Source of the DNA: Planctomycetota bacterium
Lineage (GTDB): Bacteria; Planctomycetota; Phycisphaerae; SM23-33
Reading direction: 5' to 3'
DNA: 64,000 nt
NCBI GenBank assembly: GCA_022705325.1
Contig: JAKJER010000004.1
Span: 129,724 to 193,723, forward strand
In this document: in pieces, positions 1 to 36,907 of the stretch
Numbering within the stretch: the first letter of the stretch is position 1
Layout: every line of letters starts with the position of its first letter
Program-made: the position numbers and the translations under genes
Notes under the pieces: generated by a model
What the model saw: only the letters and a program-made list of their open reading frames with translations
What the model was told of the DNA's origin: nothing
The model's database searches: none

Positions 1-1
1 G

Positions 2-1123
2 CGCAGGCCCGGGAGCTACCTGGCCATCTTCATCAACGGCTACGGCGGGGACCACCTGCCCAGGGAAGCCGAGAAGTTCGACAAGCTCCTGACCGCCATC
101 ACCCGCGAGGGGCATTTCAACGCGATACTCTGCCAATACTCGCCCGAGCGCGAGGAACTCTGCCGCAAGCACGGCGCGGCGATGGTGGTGGACCTGCTGG
201 CCGATCCGCACGTGTACAAGAGCCCCGACCCGTGCCAGGCGCTGCTGAAGAGGCTGCGGGGCAATGCAACCGTGGCCGCTTACCACCTGTGGAGCGACCG
301 GTTCGGCAGCACCGGGCCCGGCCGGGCGCGGGATATCGACAACGTCCACGCCTGGGACCCCACCCACGCCACGTTCTCGGGCACCTACAAGGCCGACGGC
401 ATCGGCTACCTGGCCAAGAGCGATTTCGTCAGCTACTACGACTTCTCGTGGAAGCGAGGCCCGGACAAGAACTTCCCCCACCTGCTGGCCGCGTGGAAGG
501 CGGCCTCCGCCCACGACGGCCGCCTGGGTCGCTACTGCGAGAGCGACGCCGGGCTGGCGGGCAAGGGTAATCCTAACCGCCTGCTGTACATCCAGACCAC
601 GTCCATCGCCTGCGGGCTGCGGGCGGCCATGTGGCACATCGGCTCGCGGATCATGAACATGGAGACGTTCCGGTTCAACCAGTACGGGCTGGACCTGGCG
701 TCGGTGAACGCATACCTCAAGCCCATGCGCGAGGAAATCGCGAAGATCGGCCTGCCGAAAGCGATCTACTCCACGCCGATCACGATGGACGCCAACCATC
801 GACCCGTCGAGGCGAAGGACGGCAAGCAGCCGATGCCTCCCGGCCTGGAGAACCATGCCTTCCCGGGCGACTTCTGGATCCAGCCCGCCGGCGGGGAGTT
901 CGTCATGGGCGTCTCGAAGTACGACGGCGGCGGCAAGGACGTCGTCTTCATCGCCAATCACGACGCGTACGGCGAGCAGAACGTCGTGCTCAAGCTCGGC
1001 CGGGCGGCCAAGCCCAGGCTCTTCAACCGCGCGACCGGCAAGTACGAGCCGCTGACGATCTCCGACGGCAAGATCAGCTTCAAGCTCGACCCGGCCGGCG
1101 GGGCGATCGTGCTGTTCGAGTGA
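2..1123 (+). CDS. hypothetical protein, 5'-truncated at window edge (C-terminal ~374 aa)
   Basis: Open frame continues from position 2 into ORF 182..1123; coherent non-low-complexity translation; stop at 1123. Confidence 0.55.
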   Translation, partial: RRPGSYLAIFINGYGGDHLPREAEKFDKLLTAITREGHFNAILCQYSPEREELCRKHGAAMVVDLLADPHVYKSPDPCQALLKRLRGNATVAAYHLWSDRFGSTGPGRARDIDNVHAWDPTHATFSGTYKADGIGYLAKSDFVSYYDFSWKRGPDKNFPHLLAAWKAASAHDGRLGRYCESDAGLAGKGNPNRLLYIQTTSIACGLRAAMWHIGSRIMNMETFRFNQYGLDLASVNAYLKPMREEIAKIGLPKAIYSTPITMDANHRPVEAKDGKQPMPPGLENHAFPGDFWIQPAGGEFVMGVSKYDGGGKDVVFIANHDAYGEQNVVLKLGRAAKPRLFNRATGKYEPLTISDGKISFKLDPAGGAIVLFE

Positions 1124-1126
1124 GGC

Positions 1127-2410
1127 TCACGCTCCCGGCACGATGGCCTTGTGCTCGCGGAGCGTCCGATGGATGTCGGCCAGGGGGACGTCCAGGGGAG
1201 TGGTCTTACCCTTGGCAGCCAGGGCGGCTGTGGCGCCGGCGGCCTGGCCCATGGCCATGCAGGAGGCCTGCACGCGGAGGGCGGAATTGGCCAGGCGGTC
1301 GCTGCTGACGCACCTGCCGGCGACGAGGATGTTGCGGCTGGTCTTGGGCGCGAGTGCTCGCAGGGGGACGGTCGGGACCACGCCCTTGGCCAGCGGCTTG
1401 GGCTTCACGCCCGTGCGGGTGTGGAGGTCGATGGGGTAGAAGGCGTAGCAGACGGCGTCGTCGTAGACCCGTCCGGCGGTGTAGTCCGCGTGGGTGATGA
1501 CCGTCTCGCCCAGGACGCGGTAGCTCTCGCGGAAGGCGGTCTCGCTCTGCAAGTGGATCAGGCGGGCGGGCTTGCCGCCCTTGGCGGGCGCCTCGCGCAG
1601 TCGCTTGAGAACGGCCTGGCGGCCGGTCAGGTTGGCCTGGGTTCGCGTGACGGAGTTCGACGAGTCGGCCCCGTGGACGTACAGGGCCTGGAGCTGCTCC
1701 CGGCCCGGCTGGTAGGGGTCGCCCACCTTGTACAGGATCGAGCCCGGCTGGGTCTCGTCCTCGCGGAGTCGTTCCAGGCCGATCATGCCGGCCAGATCGC
1801 CCCCGCCCGTGCAGTCGATGATCTGCCGGCACGCGATGCGACGTCGCGTGCCCGGGCCGACGCAGCGGACCGACCAGCCGTCGGCGGACTTCTCGGCGGA
1901 GAGGGGGAACTCGTAGTACGCGATCTTCACACCCGCCTGGAGGCACTTCTCCTCGGCCAGCAGGGCGTACACGTAGGGGTTGATCTGGACCTGGTGCTTC
2001 CAGTGCGGCACCTTCTGGGCCTGGAAATCCGGGAGCTGCCCGCCATCGGTCGCGACGGTCTCGGTTACGAGTTCCCAGCCGATGCCGGCGATGATCTGTT
2101 TGCCCCAGGCGTGAAACAGGCCCGGGAAGGCCACCCCGCCGACGGTCATCGTCCCGCCGAGCTGGCTGCCGCGCTCCACCAGCATCGTCTTGGCCCCCGC
2201 GCGGGCAGCCTGGATGGCCGCGATCGTTCCGGCCGTGCCGCCGCCGACCACCAGCACGTCGGCGTCGTCGTTCAGTTCGCCCGCGGCCGGCGCGGTCGGT
2301 TGGGCCTGCGGGTTGGCATCGGCCGCCCGTGCGGTCGCGGCAGCGGCCGCCGCTGCGCCCGCCAGGCGGAAGGAGTCGCGGCGGGTGATGGCGTTACGCG
2401 AAGTAGTCAT
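1127..2410 (-). CDS. FAD-dependent oxidoreductase with Tat-type signal peptide
   Basis: N-terminal MTTSRNAITRRDSFRLAGAAAAAA twin-arginine motif; GGGTAGTIAA dinucleotide-binding motif; ATG at 2408-2410. Upstream extension of the track ORF rejected. Confidence 0.75.
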   Translation of the reverse strand: MTTSRNAITRRDSFRLAGAAAAAAATARAADANPQAQPTAPAAGELNDDADVLVVGGGTAGTIAAIQAARAGAKTMLVERGSQLGGTMTVGGVAFPGLFHAWGKQIIAGIGWELVTETVATDGGQLPDFQAQKVPHWKHQVQINPYVYALLAEEKCLQAGVKIAYYEFPLSAEKSADGWSVRCVGPGTRRRIACRQIIDCTGGGDLAGMIGLERLREDETQPGSILYKVGDPYQPGREQLQALYVHGADSSNSVTRTQANLTGRQAVLKRLREAPAKGGKPARLIHLQSETAFRESYRVLGETVITHADYTAGRVYDDAVCYAFYPIDLHTRTGVKPKPLAKGVVPTVPLRALAPKTSRNILVAGRCVSSDRLANSALRVQASCMAMGQAAGATAALAAKGKTTPLDVPLADIHRTLREHKAIVPGA

Positions 2411-2532: not shown

Positions 2533-4980
2533 CTACTCGTACGTGAACATGGCCGTGGCCTTGCAGGCCTTGTCGGCCTTCACGCGGACCCAGTGGGCGG
2601 AGAAGCCCTCGGGGAACTCGTGCGTCACGGTCTGCCCCGCTGGCACGGTGATCGTCTTATAGGTTCGCCAGAGGTCCAGTCCGGCGAACTCGACCTCGAC
2701 CTGAATGCTCACGTCGTCCTTGGCGTCGTGGTTGAGGCGAAGGGTCTTCTTGTCGTAGCCGGCCATCAGGTAGCGGTCGCTGGCCTTGCCCGGCTGGACG
2801 GCGGTGTCCTTCCACGGCCCGCCCACGCCGCGGGGCTTGCCCATCTTCCACAGATCGTCGATGTCGCCGAACCACAGGCCGACCTTGCCGTCGTCGCCGG
2901 CGAAGTAGTGCCCGTCCGCCTTGGCCGAGGCGGAGCAGCCGGCGATCACCAGCAGTCCGCGCCACGAGCAGAAGTCGGTGATGCGCTTGTTGTGAGTGCA
3001 GACGGGCTTGATGCGGGCCAGGCCGCCGGAGATGGTTCGCGGGGCGCAGAAGAAACTGCCGGCTGCGTTCAGCAGCGATCGCTCGGTGACCACCTCGCGG
3101 AGGGCCCTGGGCCAGCCGGTCGCGAAGGGCTTGTCGTAGGCCGTGGGGTGCCCTTTGGGCAGGCGGGCCCGCAACTTGCCCTCCATCGCGATCACCGACG
3201 CGTCGTCGATCTCGATCACCTGGTGCTGGATCGCGGTCTTCTCGCGGAGGAACTTGGCTGAGGCGCTGTCGGCCCCGGTGGGCGTGAACTTCATGTCGGG
3301 CGAGACCTGGCAGGTCTTCGCCTCGCCCGCCTTGCCCGAGGCGTCCACGGGCGTGGCCAGCACGCCCAGGAGGATCTTGTCGTCGCCCTCGCTGCGGAAG
3401 ACCGCCGACGTCCAGGCGCCTTCGGCGTCCACGTCGGCCAGGGCGGCGAACGGCTTGGCGTCGGTGACGGCCCCGCCGCCGGGCCCGTAGTGGAAGTACG
3501 CGGAGACCAGCACGTCCTGGTCGCTCTTGAGGCGGATCCACTGGGCGTCGAGGTCCTTGGGGAAGAGGTGGAACGCGTAGCCGCCCGCGGGGACGGTGAT
3601 CTTGCCGCCCTCGACCCACTGTCCGTCGCCGGTCTTGTCCAGCTCGTAGGTGAACGCAGCGTCCTTCTCGCCCTTGTGCGAGAGGTGGAGCATCTTCTGC
3701 GTGTAGCCGGTAAAGAGGTATGGATCGGACGGCTCGTTGGCCTTGGCTGTATCGCCCAGCCACACGCCGCCCCAGCCGGCGGGCTTGCCCGCCTGGGGCA
3801 GGTCGTCCCACCTGGTGAACCAGAAGTTCGAGCACGACTGGCCGTTGAGGCTGTTGAGCGTATCGCTCAGGCCGATCTTGCCGGCGGAGAAGCCGCTCTT
3901 GGCCGTATCGTCGCAGGCAAAGACCAACCGGCCGTTCCAGTCGCAGAAGTCGCCCGTGATCTTGAGGTAGGTCGCGATGGGCTTGAGCCCGCCGGTCTTG
4001 CCCGCGGTGAGCCCGCCGGGGAAGTCGAACCATCCGCCGTGGAGGTTCATCAGGAACCTGCCGCCCGTCACCTCGCGGATTCGCGGCCATTCCGTGTGCC
4101 ACCCGTGCGAGCCGGTGTAGCTGTAGTCGTGGATCGGCATGCGGTAGGTGTGCCACTTGCCCTGGCTGCACACCTTCAACAGCAGCGAGCGCTTGTCCCA
4201 GCCGATGGCCCACAGTGGGGCGTCCTTGTCGGGCGGGCCCAGGATGCCGCCAGGCCCGGTCACGTCCAGGAACTGCCTGCGCTCGATCAGCCGCCATTCC
4301 TTGCCGTCCCATTCGGCCAGGGCGCCGGCGTCCTCGGGACTCCTGGGTTTGGGATCGATGAAGTAGTCGAAGGGCTTGTATTTGTCGACCGAGCCGGCTG
4401 GGTGCTCGCCGTTGTTGGCGACGACCAGCCGCCCCTGTCCGCTGTAGCCGCCCTTGCCGTGCCAGCCGGGTACGGGTCGCTTGAACAGCAGCTTCGGTTC
4501 GAGCGTCTTGACGTCCACTTCGTAGATCAGCCCCTCCATGTCCAGGATGTAGAGCTTGCCCGCGGGGTCATTCAGGTGGCGGGCGGTGGCGGTGAGGCGG
4601 CCGAACATCTTCGAGTAGGGAATCGTTCGCACGTTGCCCTTGTCGTCGATGAAGTACGGGCCGATATTGAGCTGGTTGCTCTCCCGGTGGATCATGCGGT
4701 TGGCGGGCGTGCCGCCGATCGACTCAGGGCGGGTCACGATGGCCAGGTCCGGCGAGATCTCGTAGAGCTTGTCGTCGCTGCCGCTGGGGCAGTGCGGGCT
4801 GTAGGTGATGGCCCACAGCCTGTCCGCCCAGGGCACGACGGCCCCGATGCCGCACTCCCCGCTGTTGCGGTTGTGGACCGCCAGGTGCGGGTAACGCCCA
4901 CTGACGGACAACGGCTCGGCCAGGCCGACCGGGACCAGCACAAGGCCCGCGAGCAACGCGGGGAATACTGACTTCTTCAT
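2533..4980 (-). CDS. secreted hypothetical protein with internal tandem duplication (~2 x 390 aa)
   Basis: Signal peptide MKKSVFPALLAGLVLVPVGLA. Two homologous halves (DFCDWNGRLVFACDD / DFCSWRGLLVIAGCS; ...WIRLKSDQD / ...WVRVKADK). Confidence 0.6.
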   Translation of the reverse strand: MKKSVFPALLAGLVLVPVGLAEPLSVSGRYPHLAVHNRNSGECGIGAVVPWADRLWAITYSPHCPSGSDDKLYEISPDLAIVTRPESIGGTPANRMIHRESNQLNIGPYFIDDKGNVRTIPYSKMFGRLTATARHLNDPAGKLYILDMEGLIYEVDVKTLEPKLLFKRPVPGWHGKGGYSGQGRLVVANNGEHPAGSVDKYKPFDYFIDPKPRSPEDAGALAEWDGKEWRLIERRQFLDVTGPGGILGPPDKDAPLWAIGWDKRSLLLKVCSQGKWHTYRMPIHDYSYTGSHGWHTEWPRIREVTGGRFLMNLHGGWFDFPGGLTAGKTGGLKPIATYLKITGDFCDWNGRLVFACDDTAKSGFSAGKIGLSDTLNSLNGQSCSNFWFTRWDDLPQAGKPAGWGGVWLGDTAKANEPSDPYLFTGYTQKMLHLSHKGEKDAAFTYELDKTGDGQWVEGGKITVPAGGYAFHLFPKDLDAQWIRLKSDQDVLVSAYFHYGPGGGAVTDAKPFAALADVDAEGAWTSAVFRSEGDDKILLGVLATPVDASGKAGEAKTCQVSPDMKFTPTGADSASAKFLREKTAIQHQVIEIDDASVIAMEGKLRARLPKGHPTAYDKPFATGWPRALREVVTERSLLNAAGSFFCAPRTISGGLARIKPVCTHNKRITDFCSWRGLLVIAGCSASAKADGHYFAGDDGKVGLWFGDIDDLWKMGKPRGVGGPWKDTAVQPGKASDRYLMAGYDKKTLRLNHDAKDDVSIQVEVEFAGLDLWRTYKTITVPAGQTVTHEFPEGFSAHWVRVKADKACKATAMFTYE

Positions 4981-6207: not shown

Positions 6208-6474
6208 GGTGCGAAGGATACCGGCGGAAGGGGCCAGGGACAAGGGACTACGGACCGGGGACCGGGGGCTGGAGAGGCCCCCGGGACAACGCGGGCGCGC
6301 ATCTGCCTGCCGTCGTGCAGGCGCCCGAACGGTCGGAATTGTTTGGGCAGGCGCGGTGCGATTTCGTATAAGAAAGGCGAGTTCGCTGTGACCCTGAGCC
6401 GAAAGCTGGGAGGTGGATCTTCCGATGAATAGACGAAGATTGTGCATGCGGAGATTCGTTCAGAAGGGAATCGA

Positions 6475-9591: not shown

Positions 9592-9788
9592 GGTGGAGTC
9601 TCCTTACGGTTATGCTGGGGGTTAACGGCCGGGGATTTCTCCGATTGCCCCAAGGACGAGGTTGACGCGGACGGTGCATGAGAATACGATTAGCAGCACG
9701 GGCCGCACAAGGCCCACCGCAGGCAGGTGGCCGGAGCACGTCTGGTGCCGGCTGGCTGGATGCTGCGGCGTTGTTGGGAGCAGAGCTT

Positions 9789-10694
9789 GTGGCAACGGAC
9801 GCGATACGGCCATTCCGTCATGCTGAGCGGCGAGCGGCGTTCACGCTGGTCGAATTGTTGGTGGTGATTTCCATCATCGCCCTTCTGCTGAGCCTGCTGA
9901 CGCCCACGCTGTCGCGGGTCAAGGCCATGGGCCGTCGAACGCAGTGCCAGGCGAATCTCCGCCAGATCCATACCGCCGCCACCAGCTACCAGGCCATGTA
10001 CCGCGGGGCCCTGGTGTCCGTGCACCCGCCGGTCAAGATGCCTGAGGACGGCGGGGACGAGGCATGGGTCGAACCTCCACCCGGTTGGCAGCAGCGGCAT
10101 CCCAAGTGGCCCAACAACGACAAGTTCTGCGTCAACGACATGCTCCGACAGTTCGTCGGGGGCGGCACGCTGGAGATGGCGGGCACGTCCAAGCGCGGCA
10201 ACGAGGCCTTGTGGTACTGTCCCTCGGCCTTTGAGACAAACAACAGCGCCTGGAACCACCGCCGGCTCGACTACGGCCTCAACCACTACGGGCGGGGCAC
10301 CGGAGAAACGGGCAAGTACTGGGACTCCATGAGCGGGAAAATCGAGGGCAGAAGCAACGAGGGCAACTTCCCCAGGCACGCCAGCAACATCGGCCGGACG
10401 ACGGTCATCTGGTTCGCCGACGCCGAGAATGACACCAGTCCCGAGGACATCGGCGGCGTCTCTCGCGGCAAGCTGGCCGCCGAGGGCGGAGACCACTGGC
10501 CCCTCCAGGTCAGCTTCAACCTCTACGCGTACATCCGCCACCTGATGGGGTACAACGCCGTTCAGTTCGACGGCACGGCCGTCTGGCACGACGGCGAACG
10601 GATCGACCCGGACAAGCCCGAGTCTGAACGGGCCGAAGAGGCCAGGCTCCGGGTGGAGAAGTGGTTCATCTACAAACCGCGGGTCCAAGGCTGA
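9789..10694 (+). CDS. prepilin-type N-terminal cleavage/methylation domain protein (DUF1559-like pseudopilin)
   Basis: AFTLVELLVVISIIALLLSLL class-III signal/pilin motif. No in-frame ATG nearby, so a GTG start at 9789 is proposed (uncertain). Confidence 0.6.
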   Translation: MATDAIRPFRHAERRAAFTLVELLVVISIIALLLSLLTPTLSRVKAMGRRTQCQANLRQIHTAATSYQAMYRGALVSVHPPVKMPEDGGDEAWVEPPPGWQQRHPKWPNNDKFCVNDMLRQFVGGGTLEMAGTSKRGNEALWYCPSAFETNNSAWNHRRLDYGLNHYGRGTGETGKYWDSMSGKIEGRSNEGNFPRHASNIGRTTVIWFADAENDTSPEDIGGVSRGKLAAEGGDHWPLQVSFNLYAYIRHLMGYNAVQFDGTAVWHDGERIDPDKPESERAEEARLRVEKWFIYKPRVQG

Positions 10695-14110: not shown

Positions 14111-14866
14111 TCAGTTCCTGTCCATGACCTCGTTGGCCATCCATCCGCACGCGCCGGTCCCGACGGGATCGAGCTGGTGCGGGCCAACGCTGTTGGCGTG
14201 TCCGTCGCAGTAGCCTGCGCCGGCCAGGGCATCGTGGCGAAAGTGGAACGTGGCGTAATTGGTCTTGCTTGAGCCGTGCTTGTAGAGCGGGTAGACGTAG
14301 ATCTCCTCGTTCAAGACGGCGTTCTTTGTTCGCGCGGCGTCAGCGAACAGGATGGTCTCGGTCGGGCGTCTGATCTGGTCGAGCCGCGCCGGCCTGGCAT
14401 AGCTGGTCATTCCGCAGGCGCCATCGTCAGTGTCCACGTCGGGATCGCCGGCGACGTACTGGCAGTTGATGCCGTACCCGGAGACCTGGCCCGAACCGAC
14501 GTACTTGACCGACCGGGTCGAGAAGGAAGGGCAGTCGAGCATCTTCTTGTCGCCCAGGTATCGCCACAGCGGGCCGCGCGAGACGTCCATGCAGGCCAGG
14601 CCGCCTTCCTTGTAGTACGCCCCGCACCAGGCGATCGAGTCGGGCGAGCCGATCACCCAGGCGGGCGGATAGGATTCCTCCTCCTGGGCGTACAACTGCG
14701 TTGCCAGTCCCAGGCTGCGAAGGCTGCTCTTGCAGACGGCGGCCTGAGTGAGCTTCCTGGCCTGGTTCAGCGTGGGCATGAGCATGCCCGTCAGCATCGC
14801 GATGATGGCCACGACGACCAGCAACTCGATAAGCGTGAAAGCCCGGGTGTGCGGGGCGCGACTCAT
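14111..14866 (-). CDS. prepilin-type N-terminal cleavage/methylation domain protein (DUF1559-like)
   Basis: MSRAPHTRAFTLIELLVVVAIIAML leader with the conserved Glu+5. Confidence 0.7.
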   Translation of the reverse strand: MSRAPHTRAFTLIELLVVVAIIAMLTGMLMPTLNQARKLTQAAVCKSSLRSLGLATQLYAQEEESYPPAWVIGSPDSIAWCGAYYKEGGLACMDVSRGPLWRYLGDKKMLDCPSFSTRSVKYVGSGQVSGYGINCQYVAGDPDVDTDDGACGMTSYARPARLDQIRRPTETILFADAARTKNAVLNEEIYVYPLYKHGSSKTNYATFHFRHDALAGAGYCDGHANSVGPHQLDPVGTGACGWMANEVMDRN

Positions 14867-15720
14867 GGTTGCGACTCCTGTGTGCGTTGCGGGTTCGACG
14901 TTGAAGGGCGCGTCGACCTGCCGAGCCGGACGGACCGGCTCGCGCCGGCGGCGACGACGATCTGGGGCCGGCCCGAGATCGGGTTGGGCTGGACATGGAC
15001 GGTGGCGCCATATGTCTGCAGGATCTGCTGCGAGGTCAGTACGTCCGCCACAGGCCCGGCGGCCGAGACCCGCCCTCCGTCCAGCAGGACCAGGCGGTCA
15101 CAGTATTCCGCCGCCAGGTTCAGGTCGTGGAATACGCCCGCCACCGTCAGGCCTTGGCGGCAGTTGAGCCGGGCGATGAGGTCCAACAGGGCCAACTGAT
15201 GGGCGATGTCCAGGTGGTTGGTCGGCTCGTCCAGCAGAAGGACCTGGGGCTGCTGGGCCAGGCACATGGCCACCAGGGCCCGCTGACGCTCGCCCCCGCT
15301 GATGTGGGTCACGCTGCGGTCGGCGAGGTGAGAGACGTCGGCCAGCCGCATCGCCCGCTCCGCGATCCGGCGGTCGCGGCGGCTGGGACCGCTCAGACGT
15401 CCCAGGTGCGGGCTTCGCCCCATCATCGCCACCTCGCGAACGCTGTACGGCAGATCCAGCCGCACGTCCTGTGACAGGCAACTCATCGTCCTCGCCAGCT
15501 CGCGCCGGCTGACGGTGCGCAGGTCTCGCCCCCCCAGAAGCACTCGGCCGGCGCGGAGCCCCAACACGCCGCTGACCGCCCGCAGCAGCGTGGTCTTGCC
15601 GCAGCCGTTGGGCCCCAGCAGGCCCAGGAACTCGCCTGGGCGAACCTCCAGGCTCACTCCGTGCAGGACCATCGTCCGCCCGTATCCAGCCGTGATGTTC
15701 TCGGCGGTTAGCATGCTCAT
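14863..15720 (-). CDS. ABC transporter ATP-binding protein (FecE/BtuD-like)
   Basis: Walker A GPNGCGKTT, signature LSGGERQR, Walker B LLLDEPTNHLD. ATG at 15718-15720 forms an ATGA overlap with the permease stop. Confidence 0.8.
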   Translation of the reverse strand: MSMLTAENITAGYGRTMVLHGVSLEVRPGEFLGLLGPNGCGKTTLLRAVSGVLGLRAGRVLLGGRDLRTVSRRELARTMSCLSQDVRLDLPYSVREVAMMGRSPHLGRLSGPSRRDRRIAERAMRLADVSHLADRSVTHISGGERQRALVAMCLAQQPQVLLLDEPTNHLDIAHQLALLDLIARLNCRQGLTVAGVFHDLNLAAEYCDRLVLLDGGRVSAAGPVADVLTSQQILQTYGATVHVQPNPISGRPQIVVAAGASRSVRLGRSTRPSTSNPQRTQESQP

Positions 15721-16688
15721 CCCAACCCGCGCCGGCGACGGCGCAACAGAAACAGGAAGAACGGCCCGCCCAGGAAGGCCGTCACCACGCCGATCGGAAT
15801 CTCCAGCGGCGCCAGGACGGTTCTCGCGAACGCGTCGGCCAGCACCAGCAAGCTCGCCCCCGCCAGGGCCGAGGCCAACACCAGCCTGCGGTGGTCGGGG
15901 CCGCAGGCCAGGCGGACCGCATGGGGCACGATCAGCCCGACGAAGCCGATCAGCCCGCAGGCAGCCACCGTGGCCGCCGTCACCAGCGAGCCGACCAGGA
16001 AGAAGACCACCTTGGTCCGCTCCACCGTCAGGCCCAGGTGGGCGGCGGGTTCCTCCCCGAGCGTCAACAGGTTCAGGCCTCTCGCCAGCAGCGCCGCCGC
16101 CACCGTGCCCGCCAGCACAGTCCCCGTTACCGCCCATAACAGTCCCCAATCGAAAATCTGAAGGTTCCCCAGCAGCCACCAGATTACGTTGTGCATCTCC
16201 TGCGAGGACGAGAGCGAGACCAGGAACATCAGCAGGCTGCCCATGAGCGAGCTGACGATCACGCCGGCCAGCAGGAGCGTCTGGACGCCCACTCCCCCCT
16301 CCGTCTGCCGCCCCAGCAGGTACACCAGGACAATTGTCAACGTGCCTCCCACGAACGCAGCCGCCGGCAGCGTCCATGGGCCAAGGGCGGCCAGACCCAG
16401 CAGGATCGCACCGGCCGCTCCCAACGCCGATCCGGACGAGACTCCCAGCACATACGGGTCGGCCAGCGGGTTGCGCAACAGCGCCTGGAAGATAACGCCG
16501 GCCACCGACAGGCCCGCCCCAGCCACGATCCCCAGTGCAATGCGGGCCAGCCGCAACCGGACGATCCCCGAGTCGAGCAGTTCCGAAAGCGGAACGTGCA
16601 CCGCCCCGGCGAACACCGATGCCAGGGAGGCCGCCGCCAGCACGGCTGTCAGCGCGCCGTAGATGACCCAGTCATTCGTCCTTCGCAT
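15717..16688 (-). CDS. ABC transporter permease, FecCD/BtuC family
   Basis: About 10 TM segments with a typical FecCD-family hydrophobic profile (GxxxGxxxG-like helices). Start MRRTNDWVIYGAL at 16686-16688. Confidence 0.8.
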   Translation of the reverse strand: MRRTNDWVIYGALTAVLAAASLASVFAGAVHVPLSELLDSGIVRLRLARIALGIVAGAGLSVAGVIFQALLRNPLADPYVLGVSSGSALGAAGAILLGLAALGPWTLPAAAFVGGTLTIVLVYLLGRQTEGGVGVQTLLLAGVIVSSLMGSLLMFLVSLSSSQEMHNVIWWLLGNLQIFDWGLLWAVTGTVLAGTVAAALLARGLNLLTLGEEPAAHLGLTVERTKVVFFLVGSLVTAATVAACGLIGFVGLIVPHAVRLACGPDHRRLVLASALAGASLLVLADAFARTVLAPLEIPIGVVTAFLGGPFFLFLLRRRRRGLG

Positions 16689-17625
16689 GAAGGTCGCTCT
16701 CCTTCGGGTCGTTGAGGCCGCCTGTCGGCGTATGCCCATACAACCGCTTCGCCAGGACCCGGACCCCGTCCACCAGTCGCGGTCCCGGCCGCAACAGCAG
16801 GTCGTTCGGGATGTCGCGGACAATTCGCCCCGTCTTGACCGCGGAGATATCGTCCCACCCGATCCGTCCGGCCAGTTCCTCCGTGCTTGCGGAGGACCGG
16901 CTCATGTAGGTGAGGACGATGACGTCCGGGTTCCACTGGATTATTTGCTCGGGGCTGACGCGGGGAAATGGCTGGGGCAGGTTGTGGGCCACGTTGACCC
17001 CGCCGGCGCGGTCGATCACCTCGTCGATGAAGCTGCCCCCGCCGACCGTGGTGATCGGGTCGTTCCAGATCTCGACATACACGCGCGGGCGGCGCTCCGG
17101 CGGGACCGTCCGGTAGAGGCCGGCGGTCCGATCGAGTTCCGCCCGCATGGCCGCCACGACGGGCCCGGCCCGCTCGGGCCTGGCGACCGCCTGCGCGATC
17201 GCATTAATCGCCTCAAACAACTCCCTGAAGTTCCGCGGCTGAACGTCCAGCACTCGCATTCCGGCCTTGTCCAGAGAGCCGGCCGCCCCGCGCTTGTCCA
17301 GCCCCGAGGCGACCACCAGGTCCACGCGCAAGGCCAGAAGGGTCTCGATGTTGGGCGAGCCGAAGCCTCCGACGCGCGGGATGTCCCTGGCCCGAGGGGG
17401 GTAATCGCATTTGTCAGTCACGCCGACCAACAGATCCTCCAGACCCAGGCGAAACAGGATCTCCGTTGTGCTGGGCGCCAGAGACACGATCCGCGTTCCG
17501 GCGGCCGGGCCTCCAGGCCGGATCGTCCGCCGGCCCCCCAACAGGGCGACGCCGGCGGCAAGTCCAGCCGCGACCGCCACCGCGATCAGCCACTTCCACG
17601 CGTTTGGCCCGAGGAGCCGAATCAT
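16672..17625 (-). CDS. periplasmic substrate-binding protein, BtuF/FecB (cluster A-II) type
   Basis: IVSLAPSTTEILFRLGL...DLVV motif typical of cobalamin/siderophore SBPs. Start MIRLLGP at 17623-17625; 4-nt overlap with upstream cobO. Confidence 0.7.
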   Translation of the reverse strand: MIRLLGPNAWKWLIAVAVAAGLAAGVALLGGRRTIRPGGPAAGTRIVSLAPSTTEILFRLGLEDLLVGVTDKCDYPPRARDIPRVGGFGSPNIETLLALRVDLVVASGLDKRGAAGSLDKAGMRVLDVQPRNFRELFEAINAIAQAVARPERAGPVVAAMRAELDRTAGLYRTVPPERRPRVYVEIWNDPITTVGGGSFIDEVIDRAGGVNVAHNLPQPFPRVSPEQIIQWNPDVIVLTYMSRSSASTEELAGRIGWDDISAVKTGRIVRDIPNDLLLRPGPRLVDGVRVLAKRLYGHTPTGGLNDPKESDLHAKDE

Positions 17626-18155
17626 CGTTCCACCCCGACCTGGGCGGGCAGACCCGCGTAGAATGCGTGCTTGAGGCACCGCATCTCCGTGGCGGTGTCG
17701 GCGGCCTCGATCAGGCCCGGCGTAGCGTTCCGTCCGGTCAGAACGATGCACGCGTCGGCTGGCGCGTGCTGTACGCACTCCAGCACGAGACGCTCCTCGA
17801 TCAGCCCGCACGAAACGGCCACGCAGACCTCGTCCAGGATCACGACGGCGTACCGACCGGATGCGACGATCTGCCGGGCCCGCACCAGGCACGCTTGAGC
17901 GGCGGATTCGTGGTCGGCGAAGCAGTCATCCTCTCGCGCGACGAGGAATCCTCGCCCCGCCTGGACGACATCCACCCCGGGCACGTGAGCGGCGGCGGCG
18001 ATCTCGCCGACTGTCGAGTCGTTCTTGATAAACTGGATCACGCAGACCCGCAGGCCGTGTCCAGCCGCCCGCAGCGCCAGGCCCAGGGCGGCGGTCGTCT
18101 TGCCCTTGCCGTCTCCGGTGAACAGAAGAATTCGCGGTCGATCCGTCATCATCAT
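17622..18155 (-). CDS. cobO: cob(I)yrinic acid a,c-diamide (corrinoid) adenosyltransferase CobO/BtuR
   Basis: ILLFTGDGKGKTTAALGLALRAAGHG closely matches the BtuR/CobA P-loop (IIVFTGNGKGKTTAAFG). Start chosen at the MMMTDRPR ATG triplet 18147-18155; the upstream M at 18233 is possible. Confidence 0.75.
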   Translation of the reverse strand: MMMTDRPRILLFTGDGKGKTTAALGLALRAAGHGLRVCVIQFIKNDSTVGEIAAAAHVPGVDVVQAGRGFLVAREDDCFADHESAAQACLVRARQIVASGRYAVVILDEVCVAVSCGLIEERLVLECVQHAPADACIVLTGRNATPGLIEAADTATEMRCLKHAFYAGLPAQVGVER

Positions 18156-18407
18156 CGTTCTCGCATCCATGGATAGAGGGGTCATCCGTTGGGGCCCACC
18201 CAGCGCAGGCGCCCAGGCCGCCCAAGGCGGCACCGCGGGTCAGGGGGAGGGGCCAGGCATGGCGGGAAGTCCTTTCTCGGCGACCTGGTGACGACCGCGG
18301 GCTGGCCCGGGCGCAAGGCCAGACGGCGACAGCCTGGTGGAGATTGCTGGCCGCCACGGGCGGCGCCGGACGAGCGCGTGCTTGCCCGGCCCGTGCGCGA
18401 GCGGGCC

Positions 18408-18446
18408 AACAAGAAGCCCCGGTCTCCGCGAGGGGGGCGCCGGGGC
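18408..18446 (-). terminator. candidate attenuator/terminator hairpin in the riboswitch expression platform
   Basis: Minus-strand RNA GCCCCGG-N17-CCGGGGC followed by UUCUUGUU, between the aptamer and cobO. Confidence 0.3.
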
Positions 18447-18539
18447 ATGGGCGTGCGTTCTGAGACAGTCCCGGCCGCCGATTGACTCGCGAAGGTCAAA
18501 CCAGGTTGGTTGCAGGCAGGTCTTCTGGCTTCCGGGTCA

Positions 18540-18682
18540 TCCTCTCGCCGCGCCTTCCCACCCGGACCACGCGTCCGGACAGTGGCTTTTGCGGCGGTCG
18601 TCGCCGGTTACAGCGGCGCGTCCGCGGCCGATTCACACGGCCTTCCCTTTTCGTCCGCCTGTAGCGGACAACCTGCAACGGC
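18540..18682 (-). ncRNA. cobalamin (AdoCbl) riboswitch aptamer
   Basis: Minus strand reads GUCCGC-UACAG-GCGGAC GAAAAGGGAAGGCCGUGUGAAUCGGCCGCGGACGCGCCGCUGUAACCGG ... AAAAGCCACUGUCCGG ... GGGUGGGAAGGCG. All core blocks are present in order: AAnAGGGAA, GGUGnGAAUCC, CCCGCnnCUGUAAnCGG, B12 box GCCACUG and GGGAAGGC. It lies 5' of the cobO-btuFCD operon. Confidence 0.7.
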
Positions 18683-18686
18683 AGTC

Positions 18687-18715
18687 ACTCTACAACCCGT
18701 CAAGCCGGGTGTCAA
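18687..18715 (-). promoter_or_regulatory. sigma70-type promoter for the riboswitch-cobO operon (TTGACA-17-TAGAGT)
   Basis: Minus strand: TTGACA (18715-18710), 17-nt spacer, TAGAGT (18692-18687). An AT-rich UP-like tract lies immediately upstream (18716-18750). Confidence 0.55.
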
Positions 18716-18803
18716 GTCATGTATTACGTTTATTCTTATTCATATTACGATGCCCGTGGCGCCCGATCCCGGTGCCTGGGGCCATGGGCGGCAGTTCGCC
18801 GGT

Positions 18804-20042
18804 TCACGGGCCCTCGAAGAAGCCCAGGAACACTTCGCGCAGGTCCTTGCCGAACTGCTGCCAGGCCGCCGCCGTGGCGGGTTGTTTCAGGCCGGCGATC
18901 CAGTTGGCGTTGAACTCCAGCACGCAGGCGTCGATGCCGAACCGCTCCAGCAGCCCCTCGCCGATGCTGCCCGGGTTGCGGAAGCTCGAACCCGAACTGC
19001 CCTCGGTGAACCACGTGTGCTTGCGGAGCAGTTGTTCCAGGCGGGCCATGCGGGCCAGGTGTGCGTCGAGCTTCACGTTCGGCCGAGAGATGTGCAGCCC
19101 GCCCCCTTCGTCGTTGTGGAAGTCGATCAGCAGGTCCGGCCGGCGGCCCCGGTCGATCATGCCCTTGAGCCACGTCTCCAGGGCGTGGTTCTCGGGGGCC
19201 AGGCGCGGGTCGGGCGGCTTGTCCCAGTTGCGGTTGAGGTCCTTGCCCAGCAGGTTGAATCGCGTCCAGCCGCGGGCCACGCCGTCCTTGTTGGCCATGG
19301 GCATTACGTACAGGCAGTAGCGCTCCAGGCAGCGGCGCGAGAGGGCGTCGTCAACCAGCAGGGCGCGGATCAGGCCCTGGGCCACCCAGTTGCCGCCCGG
19401 CTCCCATGCGTGCGCCCGCGCCCGCAGCACAACGCGGTGCGGGGCGTCCGGCTTGCCCACGCGGATGACCTCCAGATCCCGGCCTTCGACCGTCTTGCCG
19501 ATCGTCGTGATCTCCACCAGCGGATTCGGTCGGATCTCCGCGATCAGGCGGTCCAGGTCGCTGATGCGGTAGGGCTCCAGGCGGGCCACGAACAGCGAGC
19601 CGCCCTCCAGCTTCACGCGGAAGCGCAGGGCGTTGCCCTCGATCTTCTCGGTGGGCGTGGTGGTCCAGGTTCGTCCGTCCGCCGAGACGAAGCAGGCGGT
19701 CTTCTTGGAGATGGGCGAGCCGGGCCGCCCGTTCCAGACATTGTCGAAGTTGTGCAGGACGACCGTGAGTTCGGCGCCGCTTCGGCCCTGGAGTTGGAAG
19801 AACCAGTGCCCGGCCGCCCGGTTAGGCGAGTTGCGTTCGTAGTCGTACGAGAGATACACGTGGACCGTGCCGTCGGCGTCGACGGACCATTGCAGGGGCG
19901 AGGCGTTCTCGAAGGCTGTGCTGATGAAGGCAAGATCGGCCGGGGCCGATGCCGGTTGGGTCGCCGGGGGTGCTCCTGTGGCGGCATGGATCAGGCAAAG
20001 AGCGGAAGAGACTGCCCAGACGGCCTTGCGATCGCTATGCAT
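18804..20042 (-). CDS. secreted M14-family zinc carboxypeptidase-like protein
   Basis: Signal peptide; HAWEPGG (HxxE zinc ligands), NRNW and DFHNDEGGG motifs characteristic of peptidase M14. Confidence 0.65.
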   Translation of the reverse strand: MHSDRKAVWAVSSALCLIHAATGAPPATQPASAPADLAFISTAFENASPLQWSVDADGTVHVYLSYDYERNSPNRAAGHWFFQLQGRSGAELTVVLHNFDNVWNGRPGSPISKKTACFVSADGRTWTTTPTEKIEGNALRFRVKLEGGSLFVARLEPYRISDLDRLIAEIRPNPLVEITTIGKTVEGRDLEVIRVGKPDAPHRVVLRARAHAWEPGGNWVAQGLIRALLVDDALSRRCLERYCLYVMPMANKDGVARGWTRFNLLGKDLNRNWDKPPDPRLAPENHALETWLKGMIDRGRRPDLLIDFHNDEGGGLHISRPNVKLDAHLARMARLEQLLRKHTWFTEGSSGSSFRNPGSIGEGLLERFGIDACVLEFNANWIAGLKQPATAAAWQQFGKDLREVFLGFFEGP

Positions 20043-35291: not shown

Positions 35292-35855
35292 TCAAGCCTC
35301 GACTTCCTGGGGCTGGGGCACTGCCTGGGCCGGCGGGGCTGAGGCGGCCTCCTTCTGGGCCTGGAAGTTCGCGTACATGGTGCGGAAGACGACGGTGGCG
35401 TAGCCCAGCAGCGACCCGGCCAGACACGTGATCAGCATGACGAGGATCTGGAAACCGGGCGTGGCGTTTCCGCTGGGCATGTTGATGGTGCTGAGGGCGA
35501 AGTAGGCGCCGGCGCCGATGAAGTAGGCCGGAATGTAGTCGATGTAGGGCGCCTTCTCCATGCAGATGACCGTGAAGGTCACCAGCGCTCCGACGACGGC
35601 GACCACCGGATTGGACCCGCCCAGCATGCCGGCCAGCCAGAAGATCAACACGCTGGCCAGCACGCCCAACATGTAGCAGACCATGGCCCGCAGCCCGGCC
35701 TTGGGAGTCGCTCCCGCAATGAAGTAGAGGGCCCACGTCTGGAAGATGGCCCATGAGACCAGATAGGCGGGTGCGAACGAGCACCCATAGATGCAGATGA
35801 AGGCGAGGCAGGCGATGATGCCGGCGTGGGGCAGGAACTTGACGAGTTTGTTCAC
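35292..35855 (-). CDS. hypothetical integral membrane protein (5-6 TM)
   Basis: Hydrophobic helices throughout with a C-terminal Ala/Pro/Gln-rich tail; coherent ORF. Confidence 0.55.
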   Translation of the reverse strand: MNKLVKFLPHAGIIACLAFICIYGCSFAPAYLVSWAIFQTWALYFIAGATPKAGLRAMVCYMLGVLASVLIFWLAGMLGGSNPVVAVVGALVTFTVICMEKAPYIDYIPAYFIGAGAYFALSTINMPSGNATPGFQILVMLITCLAGSLLGYATVVFRTMYANFQAQKEAASAPPAQAVPQPQEVEA

Positions 35856-36112
35856 GAAGCTCTCCTGAAAGTGGAATTTCGGACCGTCCGAAACGACAAG
35901 TGAGCGGTATAATCGTCGCCTACGGTCCAGGAGTCAATCGTCTTCTCGTGGATCCGGAACTTGCGCGGGCCAAAGGTGAGCGATCCGCCGTCCGTCTCGC
36001 CGACAGGGGGGCGGGTTCCGCGACCGGGCCGATCGCGGAAATCTGCGGTTGTCGCGCGCGTTTGTTCTCACCAGAGACGATGGGCAAAGGGCATTCCATC
36101 AGGACTGTGGGC

Positions 36113-36907
36113 ATGAGTCAGACTGGGCAAGACGCATGGACAGTTCGCGCGTTCATCCGGCGGCGTGCGGCGTTCACGCTGGTTGAGTTGCTGATCGTGG
36201 TTTCGATCCTGTCTCTGCTGTTGAGTATTCTGACTCCGACCCTGTCGCGATCCAAGGAACTGGCGCGGCGGGCAATATGCGCCAGTAACCTGCGGAACGC
36301 GGGCAACGCTCTCAACAGTTACGCTTCAGAGAGCCGCCAGATGCTTCCCCCGGTAGGCGCCTGGTATATGAACGACATGATGATGTACATCCTGTACGAG
36401 CGGTACGGCGGGGTGAATCCTGTCGGGTTCAACAGCCTGGGCTACCTGGAGCGCGACGGCTTCGTCCCGATGCACGGGGACATGTTGTTCTGTCCCAGCG
36501 AGACCAACGACTGGCTCTGCAATTCGCGAGGCAACCTGGACAACGGCAACTGCCTGCCGTGGAACGGGGGCTCCGGATTCGCCCCCCAGCAGATGGTGCC
36601 GGCCGACAAGGACAAGTACACCTGGATGAACAAACGGTCGGCGTATATCCGGCGCACGCTGGGCGAGACCAGCGGCGCGAGTTGCCGGGGGCTGGAGCGT
36701 CTGGGCAGCCAGGCGTTCCTGGCCGACATCTTCAACAGCGCCGGCCACGTGCGGACCCGTCACAAGGAGGGGGTCAACGTGTGGTACGGCAGCGGGCGCG
36801 TGGCCTGGATCATCCCGCCCGAGTCGTTGCAGTGGCCCGACGGGTCCTACTCCGGGGGGCACGAGAAACTCCGCCCGCTGTGGGAGCATTTCGACATGAC
36901 CGAATAG
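36113..36907 (+). CDS. prepilin-type N-terminal cleavage/methylation domain protein (DUF1559-like)
   Basis: RAAFTLVELLIVVSILSLLLSIL motif. ATG at 36113 (alternative 36080). A paralog of the 9789 and 14111 genes. Confidence 0.65.
   Translation: MSQTGQDAWTVRAFIRRRAAFTLVELLIVVSILSLLLSILTPTLSRSKELARRAICASNLRNAGNALNSYASESRQMLPPVGAWYMNDMMMYILYERYGGVNPVGFNSLGYLERDGFVPMHGDMLFCPSETNDWLCNSRGNLDNGNCLPWNGGSGFAPQQMVPADKDKYTWMNKRSAYIRRTLGETSGASCRGLERLGSQAFLADIFNSAGHVRTRHKEGVNVWYGSGRVAWIIPPESLQWPDGSYSGGHEKLRPLWEHFDMTE

Follow-up and report, generated by a model that had tools for sequence, protein, structure and literature searches.

Cobalamin riboswitches make up the most widespread riboswitch class, and class I members (Rfam family RF00174) in the leaders of Escherichia coli btuB and Salmonella cob stand upstream of B12 transport and salvage genes. 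Here we describe an RF00174 element on the minus strand of a 64,000-nucleotide (nt) stretch of DNA (hereafter the window; contig JAKJER010000004.1, positions 129,724 to 193,723 of the forward strand) from an uncultured, high-GC lineage of Planctomycetota, where it lies in front of cobO, of btuF-, btuC- and btuD-like genes and of a gene for a prepilin-type protein. We consider it likely that its promoter, aptamer and terminator platform work together as a corrinoid OFF switch over this five-gene operon. An earlier sequence-only reading had proposed that a cobalamin riboswitch, with its own promoter and a terminator-type platform, controls a cobO-btuFCD operon, and this core interpretation is supported by the analysis below. 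Positions are those of the window and features lie on its minus strand unless marked otherwise.

The element resembles the btuB and cob leaders in its full-length covariance match, in its B12 box, in helices P1-P6 with a peripheral extension, in an L5 loop that faces a P13 hairpin and in its position before B12 transport and salvage genes, and repression would be expected here as well when B12 is abundant. It differs from btuB, which acts on the ribosome-binding site, in having a terminator-type platform. Further differences are its L5 loop (ACGCG instead of the consensus UCCCG, with a matching CGCG in L13) and the 345 nt that separate the aptamer from the first gene.

In the transcriptional, repressing metE riboswitch of Priestia megaterium, mutagenesis has demonstrated the logic of P13, kissing loop, antiterminator and terminator: the kissing loop stabilizes P13, and the terminator forms (PMC10327014). 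The same arrangement is predicted for the window, whereas in P. megaterium it is proven. The predicted antiterminator of the window is also larger, engages the P13 loop and the terminator 3' arm, and is the minimum-free-energy fold in three of the six homologous leaders. The metE and ppe2 leaders of Mycobacterium tuberculosis share with the window a high-GC host, a long leader and a short open reading frame (ORF) with a Shine-Dalgarno (SD) sequence between aptamer and gene. They are atypical class II translational switches whose upstream ORFs overlap or couple to the main gene (PMC11260477), whereas the mini-ORF of the window, whose translation is hypothetical, ends before cobO and resembles a relic of cassette duplication.

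The cobalamin aptamer and its promoter

The only Rfam match above its gathering score in the whole window (cmscan) was RF00174 (Cobalamin) at 18691..18498, with 114.9 bits and an E-value of 4.5e-28 over model positions 1-189 of 189, untruncated. This is 3.6 times the curated gathering score of 31.5 bits, and no other family of clan CL00101 scores as high here. The aptamer with its B12 box lies on the minus strand where the sequence-only reading had placed it. The remark in that reading that ORF-based annotation would miss the riboswitch holds in a trivial sense; annotation pipelines that use Rfam detect it at once.

Conservation was judged from six leaders, namely the window and five from metagenomes (L049, L061, L062, L063 and L064). 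The one-genome-per-species collection holds no close relative: its best CobO match is 59% identical, and its top CobO matches come mostly from Planctomycetota and other metagenome-assembled genomes of the Planctomycetes-Verrucomicrobia-Chlamydiae (PVC) group. L049 was obtained by a protein-cluster look-up (CobO 81% identical, aptamer 120.2 bits, 375-nt leader), and L061-L064 are four Joint Genome Institute contigs retrieved from metagenomes with a 22-mer of the P13 hairpin. P13 identity in these four is therefore by construction, and L049, found through CobO, is independent. All five homologous leaders carry an RF00174 aptamer, at 91-120 bits. A further contig, L048 (CobO 94% identical), was excluded from leader inference because it is unlike the window upstream of ~18215. 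It opens with the Illumina adapter GCTCTTCCGATCT (1..13, +), its positions 1..170 are unrelated, coding-like sequence with no leader, and it is probably a chimeric assembly; L053, as close a relative, agrees with the leader of the window.

The B12 box GCCACUG (18586..18580) aligns with the consensus GCCACUG and is invariant in the six leaders. P1 is built from nine contiguous pairs between GUUGCAGGU (18679..18671) and GCCUGCAAC (18517..18509); the four outermost pairs of the model are unformed and all others are formed, while among the homologues a U-A pair becomes U-G in three sequences and one mismatch occurs in L049. The P2 stem has changed on both sides with pairing kept (UGUCCGC/GCGGACG in the window, GCCCCGG/UCGGGGC in L062, GCCC/GGGC in L064). 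The peripheral P6 extension, which indicates class I rather than class II, is the helix GUCCGG/UCCGGG, aligned with high posterior probability, and it covaries to GCCUGG/UCCAGG in L049. Both P1 and P2, on whose pairing the sequence-only reading depended, are thus formed, with compensatory changes among the homologues. The L5 loop is ACGCG, inside GGACGCGCC, and the aptamer stands on the same strand as, and upstream of, cobO and the btuFCD-like genes with no gene between.

The covariance score, the B12 box, P1 and P2, the P6 extension and the gene context are all those of the family, and the aptamer is genuine. From its sequence it is a further example of the well-known class I (adenosylcobalamin-type) kind, and adenosylcobalamin is its presumed ligand. 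It is a well-behaved addition to a known class in this lineage, of value for annotation and no surprise.

Upstream of the aptamer we observed a sigma-70-type promoter (18715..18687), made of TTGACA (18715..18710), a 17-nt spacer and TAGAGT (18692..18687), which agrees with 10 of the 12 hexamer positions. It is the sole promoter-like site in 17900..19000, a region for which shuffles predict 0.1. The -35 TTGAC and the -10 TA...T are invariant in the six leaders, and the sequence around the promoter is unconserved, so that the near-consensus promoter that had been noticed earlier is both present and conserved. Across the six aligned leaders, these constant positions support the promoter, and the paired changes in P2 and the P6 extension support the aptamer fold. 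Transcription would start at about 18680, just 5' of P1. The A/T-rich CGTAATATGAATAAGAATAAACGTAATACATGAC (18716..18750) abuts the -35 hexamer on its upstream side, in a genome of 67% G+C, and may be an UP-element-like feature; CGTAATAC, upstream of the -35, is common to the window, L049 and L063.

Expression platform and the long leader

Directly after P1 comes the P13 hairpin, UUGAC-CUUCGCGA-GUCAA (18499..18482), which has -3.9 kcal/mol when folded alone and is identical in the window and in the independently found L049. The CGCG of its loop is complementary to the CGCG of L5, and four pairs are possible. The L5 consensus of the family, UCCCG, would pair with CGGGA in L13 (PMC10327014); compared with it, the central pair here is G:C instead of C:G, changed on both partners. 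This change is consistent with the L5-L13 kissing loop proposed here.

An intrinsic-terminator-like hairpin with a U-rich tract (18445..18406) lies fifty nt beyond P13, consisting of CCCCGG...CCGGGG (18445..18417) followed by CUUCUUGUUGG (18416..18406). The hairpin alone has -14.6 to -18.8 kcal/mol, with a range of -14.6 to -22.6 kcal/mol for the conserved hairpin, and the promoter/terminator scan of the region also returned a terminator-like match. Its inner stem varies yet pairs among the homologues (CGC/GCG, CCGC/GCGG, CGCC/GGCG, UGC/GCA). The outer stem is invariant, and its nearly constant positions give no covariation evidence for or against pairing. The hairpin and tract described in the sequence-only reading are hence present and conserved, but the tract of the window is degenerate, as are those of L062 and L049; L061, L063 and L064 have U5-U7 tracts. 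Other cobalamin riboswitches of the PVC group (L004, L009, L011, L005 and L065) show clear terminators 60-100 nt past the aptamer.

When RNAalifold was applied to the six platforms, it returned a competing fold instead of the two hairpins, with 28 pairs, most of them retained in five or six of the six sequences. Here the interior of the terminator is taken up by the P13 loop and 3' side, CCUGG just 5' of P13 pairs with the terminator 3' arm, and the proposed antiterminator 5' strand GGCGGCCGGG (18479..18470) pairs with the terminator 5' arm CCCCGGCGCC. The platform of the window has this antiterminator as its minimum-free-energy fold, with -43.3 kcal/mol in one calculation and -39.9 kcal/mol in another; in the first, with P13 forced closed and its loop unavailable, P13 and the terminator fold at -39.1 kcal/mol.

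We propose the following mechanism. A transcript starting near 18680 would fold over its first ~180 nt as a class I cobalamin aptamer. With a corrinoid bound, L5 (ACGCG) would kiss the P13 loop and P13 would stay shut, the terminator hairpin and its U-rich tract would form, and transcription would end. Without ligand, the P13 loop, the P13 3' side and the antiterminator strand would pair with the terminator interior and 5' arm, CCUGG would pair with the 3' arm, and RNA polymerase would read through the 345-nt leader into cobO, the btuF-, btuC- and btuD-like genes and the prepilin-type H-X9-DG gene. As readthrough would need the ligand-free switch, the corrinoid importer and the adenosyltransferase would be made only when B12 is scarce.

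The sequence-only reading had implied that the aptamer adjoins cobO. This does not hold, since 345 nt separate the aptamer 3' end (18498) from the cobO ATG (18152). Past the terminator, a spacer (18407..18302) contains block C, GGCCCGCUCGCGCA (18407..18394), for which RNAalifold predicts a helix with block D, CUGGCCUUGCGCCCGGGCCAG (18322..18302), that encloses a variable stretch. Both blocks are conserved in the five homologous leaders; as these positions are nearly invariant, they provide no covariation evidence for or against the helix. A search of 18100..18520 for a second known RNA (Rfam, E up to 10) gave noise alone (Guanidine-III, 13.8 bits; sX13, 13.8 bits). A leader peptide or gene in the spacer was considered and rejected. 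The two candidate ORFs (18182..18499, 105 amino acids; 17926..18357, 143 amino acids) lack coding periodicity: GC by codon position stays at 0.65-0.82 whatever the phase, where real genes show 0.7/0.5/0.87. Both frames are also disrupted by indels when the window is compared with L049.

Further downstream lies the SD-like GAGAAAGGA (18278..18270) with a six-codon mini-ORF, MPGPSP*, from ATG 18260 to TGA 18240 (whole feature 18278..18240). The same six-codon mini-ORF, with its stop at the same position, is found in L062 and L063, and the stop is lost in L049. In L061 (~940..1206, +) a real prepilin-type gene (FTLVELLVAVAIIALL...; VSRPAFTLVELLVAVAIIALL...; FTLVELLV...) begins at the aligned SD sequence and GTG. 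The mini-ORF is probably the relic start of a gene that the leader originally served, although a functional role for it or for the C/D helix is possible.

The L062 leader (~960..1570, -) is near-identical to that of the window from P1 to the mini-ORF stop, while P2, the promoter flank and the downstream gene all differ; that gene encodes a secreted (signal-peptide) protein with the N-terminus MMKFGWTVVAVAALSAFAQG. This suggests that the regulatory cassette was duplicated within one population or genome. A cassette of promoter, aptamer, terminator, spacer and SD sequence appears to have been copied before several genes of a regulon, including further prepilin-type and secreted proteins, and the simplest reading would be that the whole cassette, with the first codons of the original gene, was copied in this way. 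Since a near-identical leader precedes a different gene on L062, the regulon is probably larger than one operon.

Long post-terminator leaders recur in the group: L065 has a 430-nt leader between aptamer and terminator on one side and btuF on the other, which is not homologous to that of the window and in which short A/T-rich repeats occur (4740..4920, +; AAATTGAAAATTGAAAATTGCAAACTGCAAATTG and another stretch resembling it).

Operon genes and competing explanations

The first gene, cobO (18152..17622), encodes a CobO/BtuR-type ATP:corrinoid adenosyltransferase of 176 amino acids. It matches PF02572 (CobA_CobO_BtuR) with 183.8 bits over profile positions 3-171 of 172 (cut-off 25.7), and scores 151.8 with the TIGR00708 equivalog, just below the cut-off of 167.75. 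Its start, ATG 18152, is the sole ATG common with L048, L053 and L049, and coding periodicity begins at ~18170-18150. A BtuF-like periplasmic substrate-binding protein of 317 amino acids follows (17625..16672; PF01497, Peripla_BP_2, 117.8 bits), with its ATG 17625 overlapping the cobO stop (ATGA). The BtuC-like FecCD-family permease (323 amino acids, 16688..15717; PF01032, FecCD, 285.8 bits) starts at ATG 16688, with a 17-nt overlap with the end of btuF, and the BtuD-like ABC ATPase (285 amino acids, 15720..14863; PF00005, ABC_tran, 111.5 bits) starts at ATG 15720, within an ATGA that also contains the btuC stop. A convergent gene for a VWA-domain protein lies 18 nt beyond the end of the operon.

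The sequence-only reading had listed four coupled genes, for an adenosyltransferase, a substrate-binding protein, a permease and an ATPase. Their Pfam families and overlaps agree with this list, but it missed a fifth gene at 14866..14111. The term 'complete regulon' was an overstatement: the genes of the window include no outer-membrane component and no nucleotide-loop remodelling genes, and a near-identical copy of the leader stands before another gene on L062. Pfam scans of 29 other ORFs of the window gave no further B12-related gene.

The locus shares with E. coli and Salmonella the three Pfam families of the BtuFCD type II importer together with a BtuR/CobO adenosyltransferase, and the best NCBIfam matches agree. 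In the window, unlike there, the four genes form one riboswitch-controlled operon and no BtuB/TonB partner is found nearby. The btuD-coupled prepilin-type H-X9-DG gene has no equivalent in E. coli.

Several observations weigh against a ligand-controlled terminator switch over a B12 importer. The whole leader folds no more stably than shuffled sequence (z = 0.10), which makes its global stability uninformative. L5 and L13 are invariant across six leaders, four of which were chosen by their P13 sequence, and the kissing loop is consequently without covariation inside the set. The unconstrained minimum-free-energy fold holds the terminator in L061, L062 and L064, so the antiterminator is not uniformly favoured thermodynamically. 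The U-tract of the window is interrupted (six U in 11, longest run two), and for this reason intrinsic termination may be weak. The conserved helix and the mini-ORF in the 345-nt leader are superfluous to the switch model. Finally, the NCBIfam equivalog cut-offs are unreached for BtuF (100 against 234), BtuC (260.7 against 461), the corrinoid ATPase of the BtuD position (269.2 against 537) and CobA; with all of them missed, B12 as the substrate is suggested by context and best-hit family.

In the main rival explanation the aptamer is real and control acts mainly after the hairpin, by Rho-dependent termination or by translational control in the long C-rich leader; 18445..18406 would then be a pause site or weak terminator, and translation of the mini-ORF from its SD sequence (18278..18240) might contribute. 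The degenerate U-tract, shared by the window, L062 and L049, fits this explanation, and so do the C-richness of the 345-nt non-coding leader on the transcript (plus-strand GC skew +0.07 to +0.10 in 18100..18549), the conserved blocks C, D and E past the terminator and the six-codon ORF with conserved SD sequence and stop position in three leaders; B12 riboswitches coupled to upstream ORFs also have precedent (PMC11260477). However, close homologues of the platform (L061, L063 and L064) have perfect U5-U7 tracts, which argues that intrinsic termination is the ancestral mode. Moreover, direct coupling is not apparent for a mini-ORF that ends 87 nt ahead of the cobO start, the ORF of L049 has lost its stop and continues for ~46 codons, and no pairing was found between the aptamer or P13 and the SD-like block. 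We therefore regard control after the hairpin as rather unlikely.

That the match is a decayed relic with no regulation left is scarcely credible. The long distance to the first gene and the imperfect U-tract could be read in this way, but the 114.9-bit match is full-length with B12 box and P1 intact, and promoter, aptamer, P13 and terminator are kept where CobO is just 81% identical, the helix changes being compensatory. It is also very unlikely that the riboswitch controls an operon in which cobO alone is B12-related and the ABC transporter imports haem or a siderophore. PF01497, PF01032 and PF00005 are common to iron-siderophore, haem and B12 importers, and, with the equivalog cut-offs all missed, the scores of the haem and F420-0 models are little lower than those of the B12 models. 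Yet the best NCBIfam match of each of the three subunits is a B12 or corrinoid model (BtuF, BtuC and the corrinoid ABC transporter ATPase), a cobalamin riboswitch precedes all four translationally coupled genes, and orthologous transporters occur within operons for making or salvaging cobalamin (L004, L056, L060 and the P0195 contig). B12 is thus the probable substrate, and a corrinoid OFF switch acting at the terminator is the reading that we prefer.

A prepilin-type gene coupled to btuD

The fifth gene of the operon (14866..14111) encodes a prepilin-type H-X9-DG (DUF1559-like) protein of 251 amino acids and is translationally coupled, its ATG 14866 overlapping the btuD stop (ATGA). The protein matches PF07963 (29.2 bits, cut-off 21.2) and TIGR02532 (23.0, cut-off 16.3) and has the N-terminal methylation motif FTLIELLVV. 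Near its C-terminus stands H211-X9-D221-G222, in which H211 and D221 never vary among 54 subfamily members and the conservation of G222 is 90% or more. Most homologues carry a PF07596 annotation; for the protein of the window this family gave no match at E up to 0.001. An AlphaFold model (pLDDT, a per-residue confidence score, 88.5) has a 50-residue pilin-like N-terminal helix and a beta-rich head. In a fold search with this model the helix matched type IV pilins weakly (E 0.18) and the head had no match in the PDB, so the structure gave no functional clue.

Methylation and H-X9-DG motifs, and the predicted pilin-like helix with beta-rich head, are shared with the DUF1559/H-X9-DG family of Planctomycetota and Verrucomicrobiota (PF07596, PF07963). 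To our knowledge, no function has been published for this very large prepilin-like family. The window protein belongs to a discrete subfamily of ~250 amino acids, with about 79 clusters at 164-557 bits and 42-95% identity, and is set apart from the other paralogues, which score at most 116 bits. Its members also differ from those paralogues in their position. In all nine contexts examined, the orthologue stands directly after the ABC ATPase gene of a Peripla_BP_2/FecCD/ABC_tran trio, with stop and start usually overlapping. These contexts are the window, P0121 (L053-L055), L004, P0160 (L056, L057), P0175 (L058, L059), P0193 (L060), P0154 (L065), P0172 (L066) and P0195.

An RF00174 aptamer lies upstream on the same strand in four of the nine (the window, L004, L058 and L065). 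In L004 the orthologue (49% identity to the window protein) comes last in a twelve-gene operon headed by an RF00174 aptamer, with the gene order cobC, cobU, cobT, cobS, cobD/Q, cbiB, cobO, cbiA, btuF, btuC, btuD, pilin-like gene. Further prepilin-type genes are found behind cobalamin riboswitches in L058, L061, L063 and L064.

The association of btuFCD with the pilin-like gene is thus shown. Cobalamin riboswitches reliably mark genes with B12-related functions, and at this locus and three others the riboswitch points to a member of the DUF1559/H-X9-DG family. We tentatively suggest, while holding it somewhat doubtful, that the fifth protein takes part in the corrinoid uptake of Planctomycetota, chiefly Phycisphaerae, as a riboswitch-regulated component that has so far escaped notice. 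It could carry a corrinoid-capturing head on a pseudopilus, or be membrane-anchored, and could hand B12 to BtuF or aid its crossing of the envelope where no BtuB/TonB is encoded nearby. Our literature search found no link between DUF1559 and cobalamin, nor a report that brings riboswitches, Planctomycetes, B12 and pilins together. At this locus, the only potentially new biology is the pilin-like protein linked to the transporter. Should the subfamily indeed help to capture corrinoids, this would offer a first clue to what the family does and would hint at how these bacteria take up B12.

Two more ORFs of the window match PF07963 (9666..10694, +; 35843..36907, +). Neither adjoins B12 genes, and both are in keeping with the very many paralogues that such genes have in Planctomycetota. 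In L058, the RF00174 aptamer (88.2 bits, 3857..4086, +) lies in a 380-nt leader that also contains a sub-threshold match to the class II adenosylcobalamin family RF01482 (29.3 bits, gathering score 50, E 0.0015, 4288..4412) with its own GCCACUG, and the two may form a tandem riboswitch arrangement; the operon behind them has a prepilin-like gene, an unknown gene, btuFCD and the DUF1559-like gene. Two other contigs carry unrelated RNAs, namely a cyclic di-AMP riboswitch ~2 kb downstream of cobO in L003 (RF00379, 100.3 bits, 9663..9799, +) and an Acido-Lenti-1 RNA in L066 (RF01687, 39.5 bits, 6289..6346, +).

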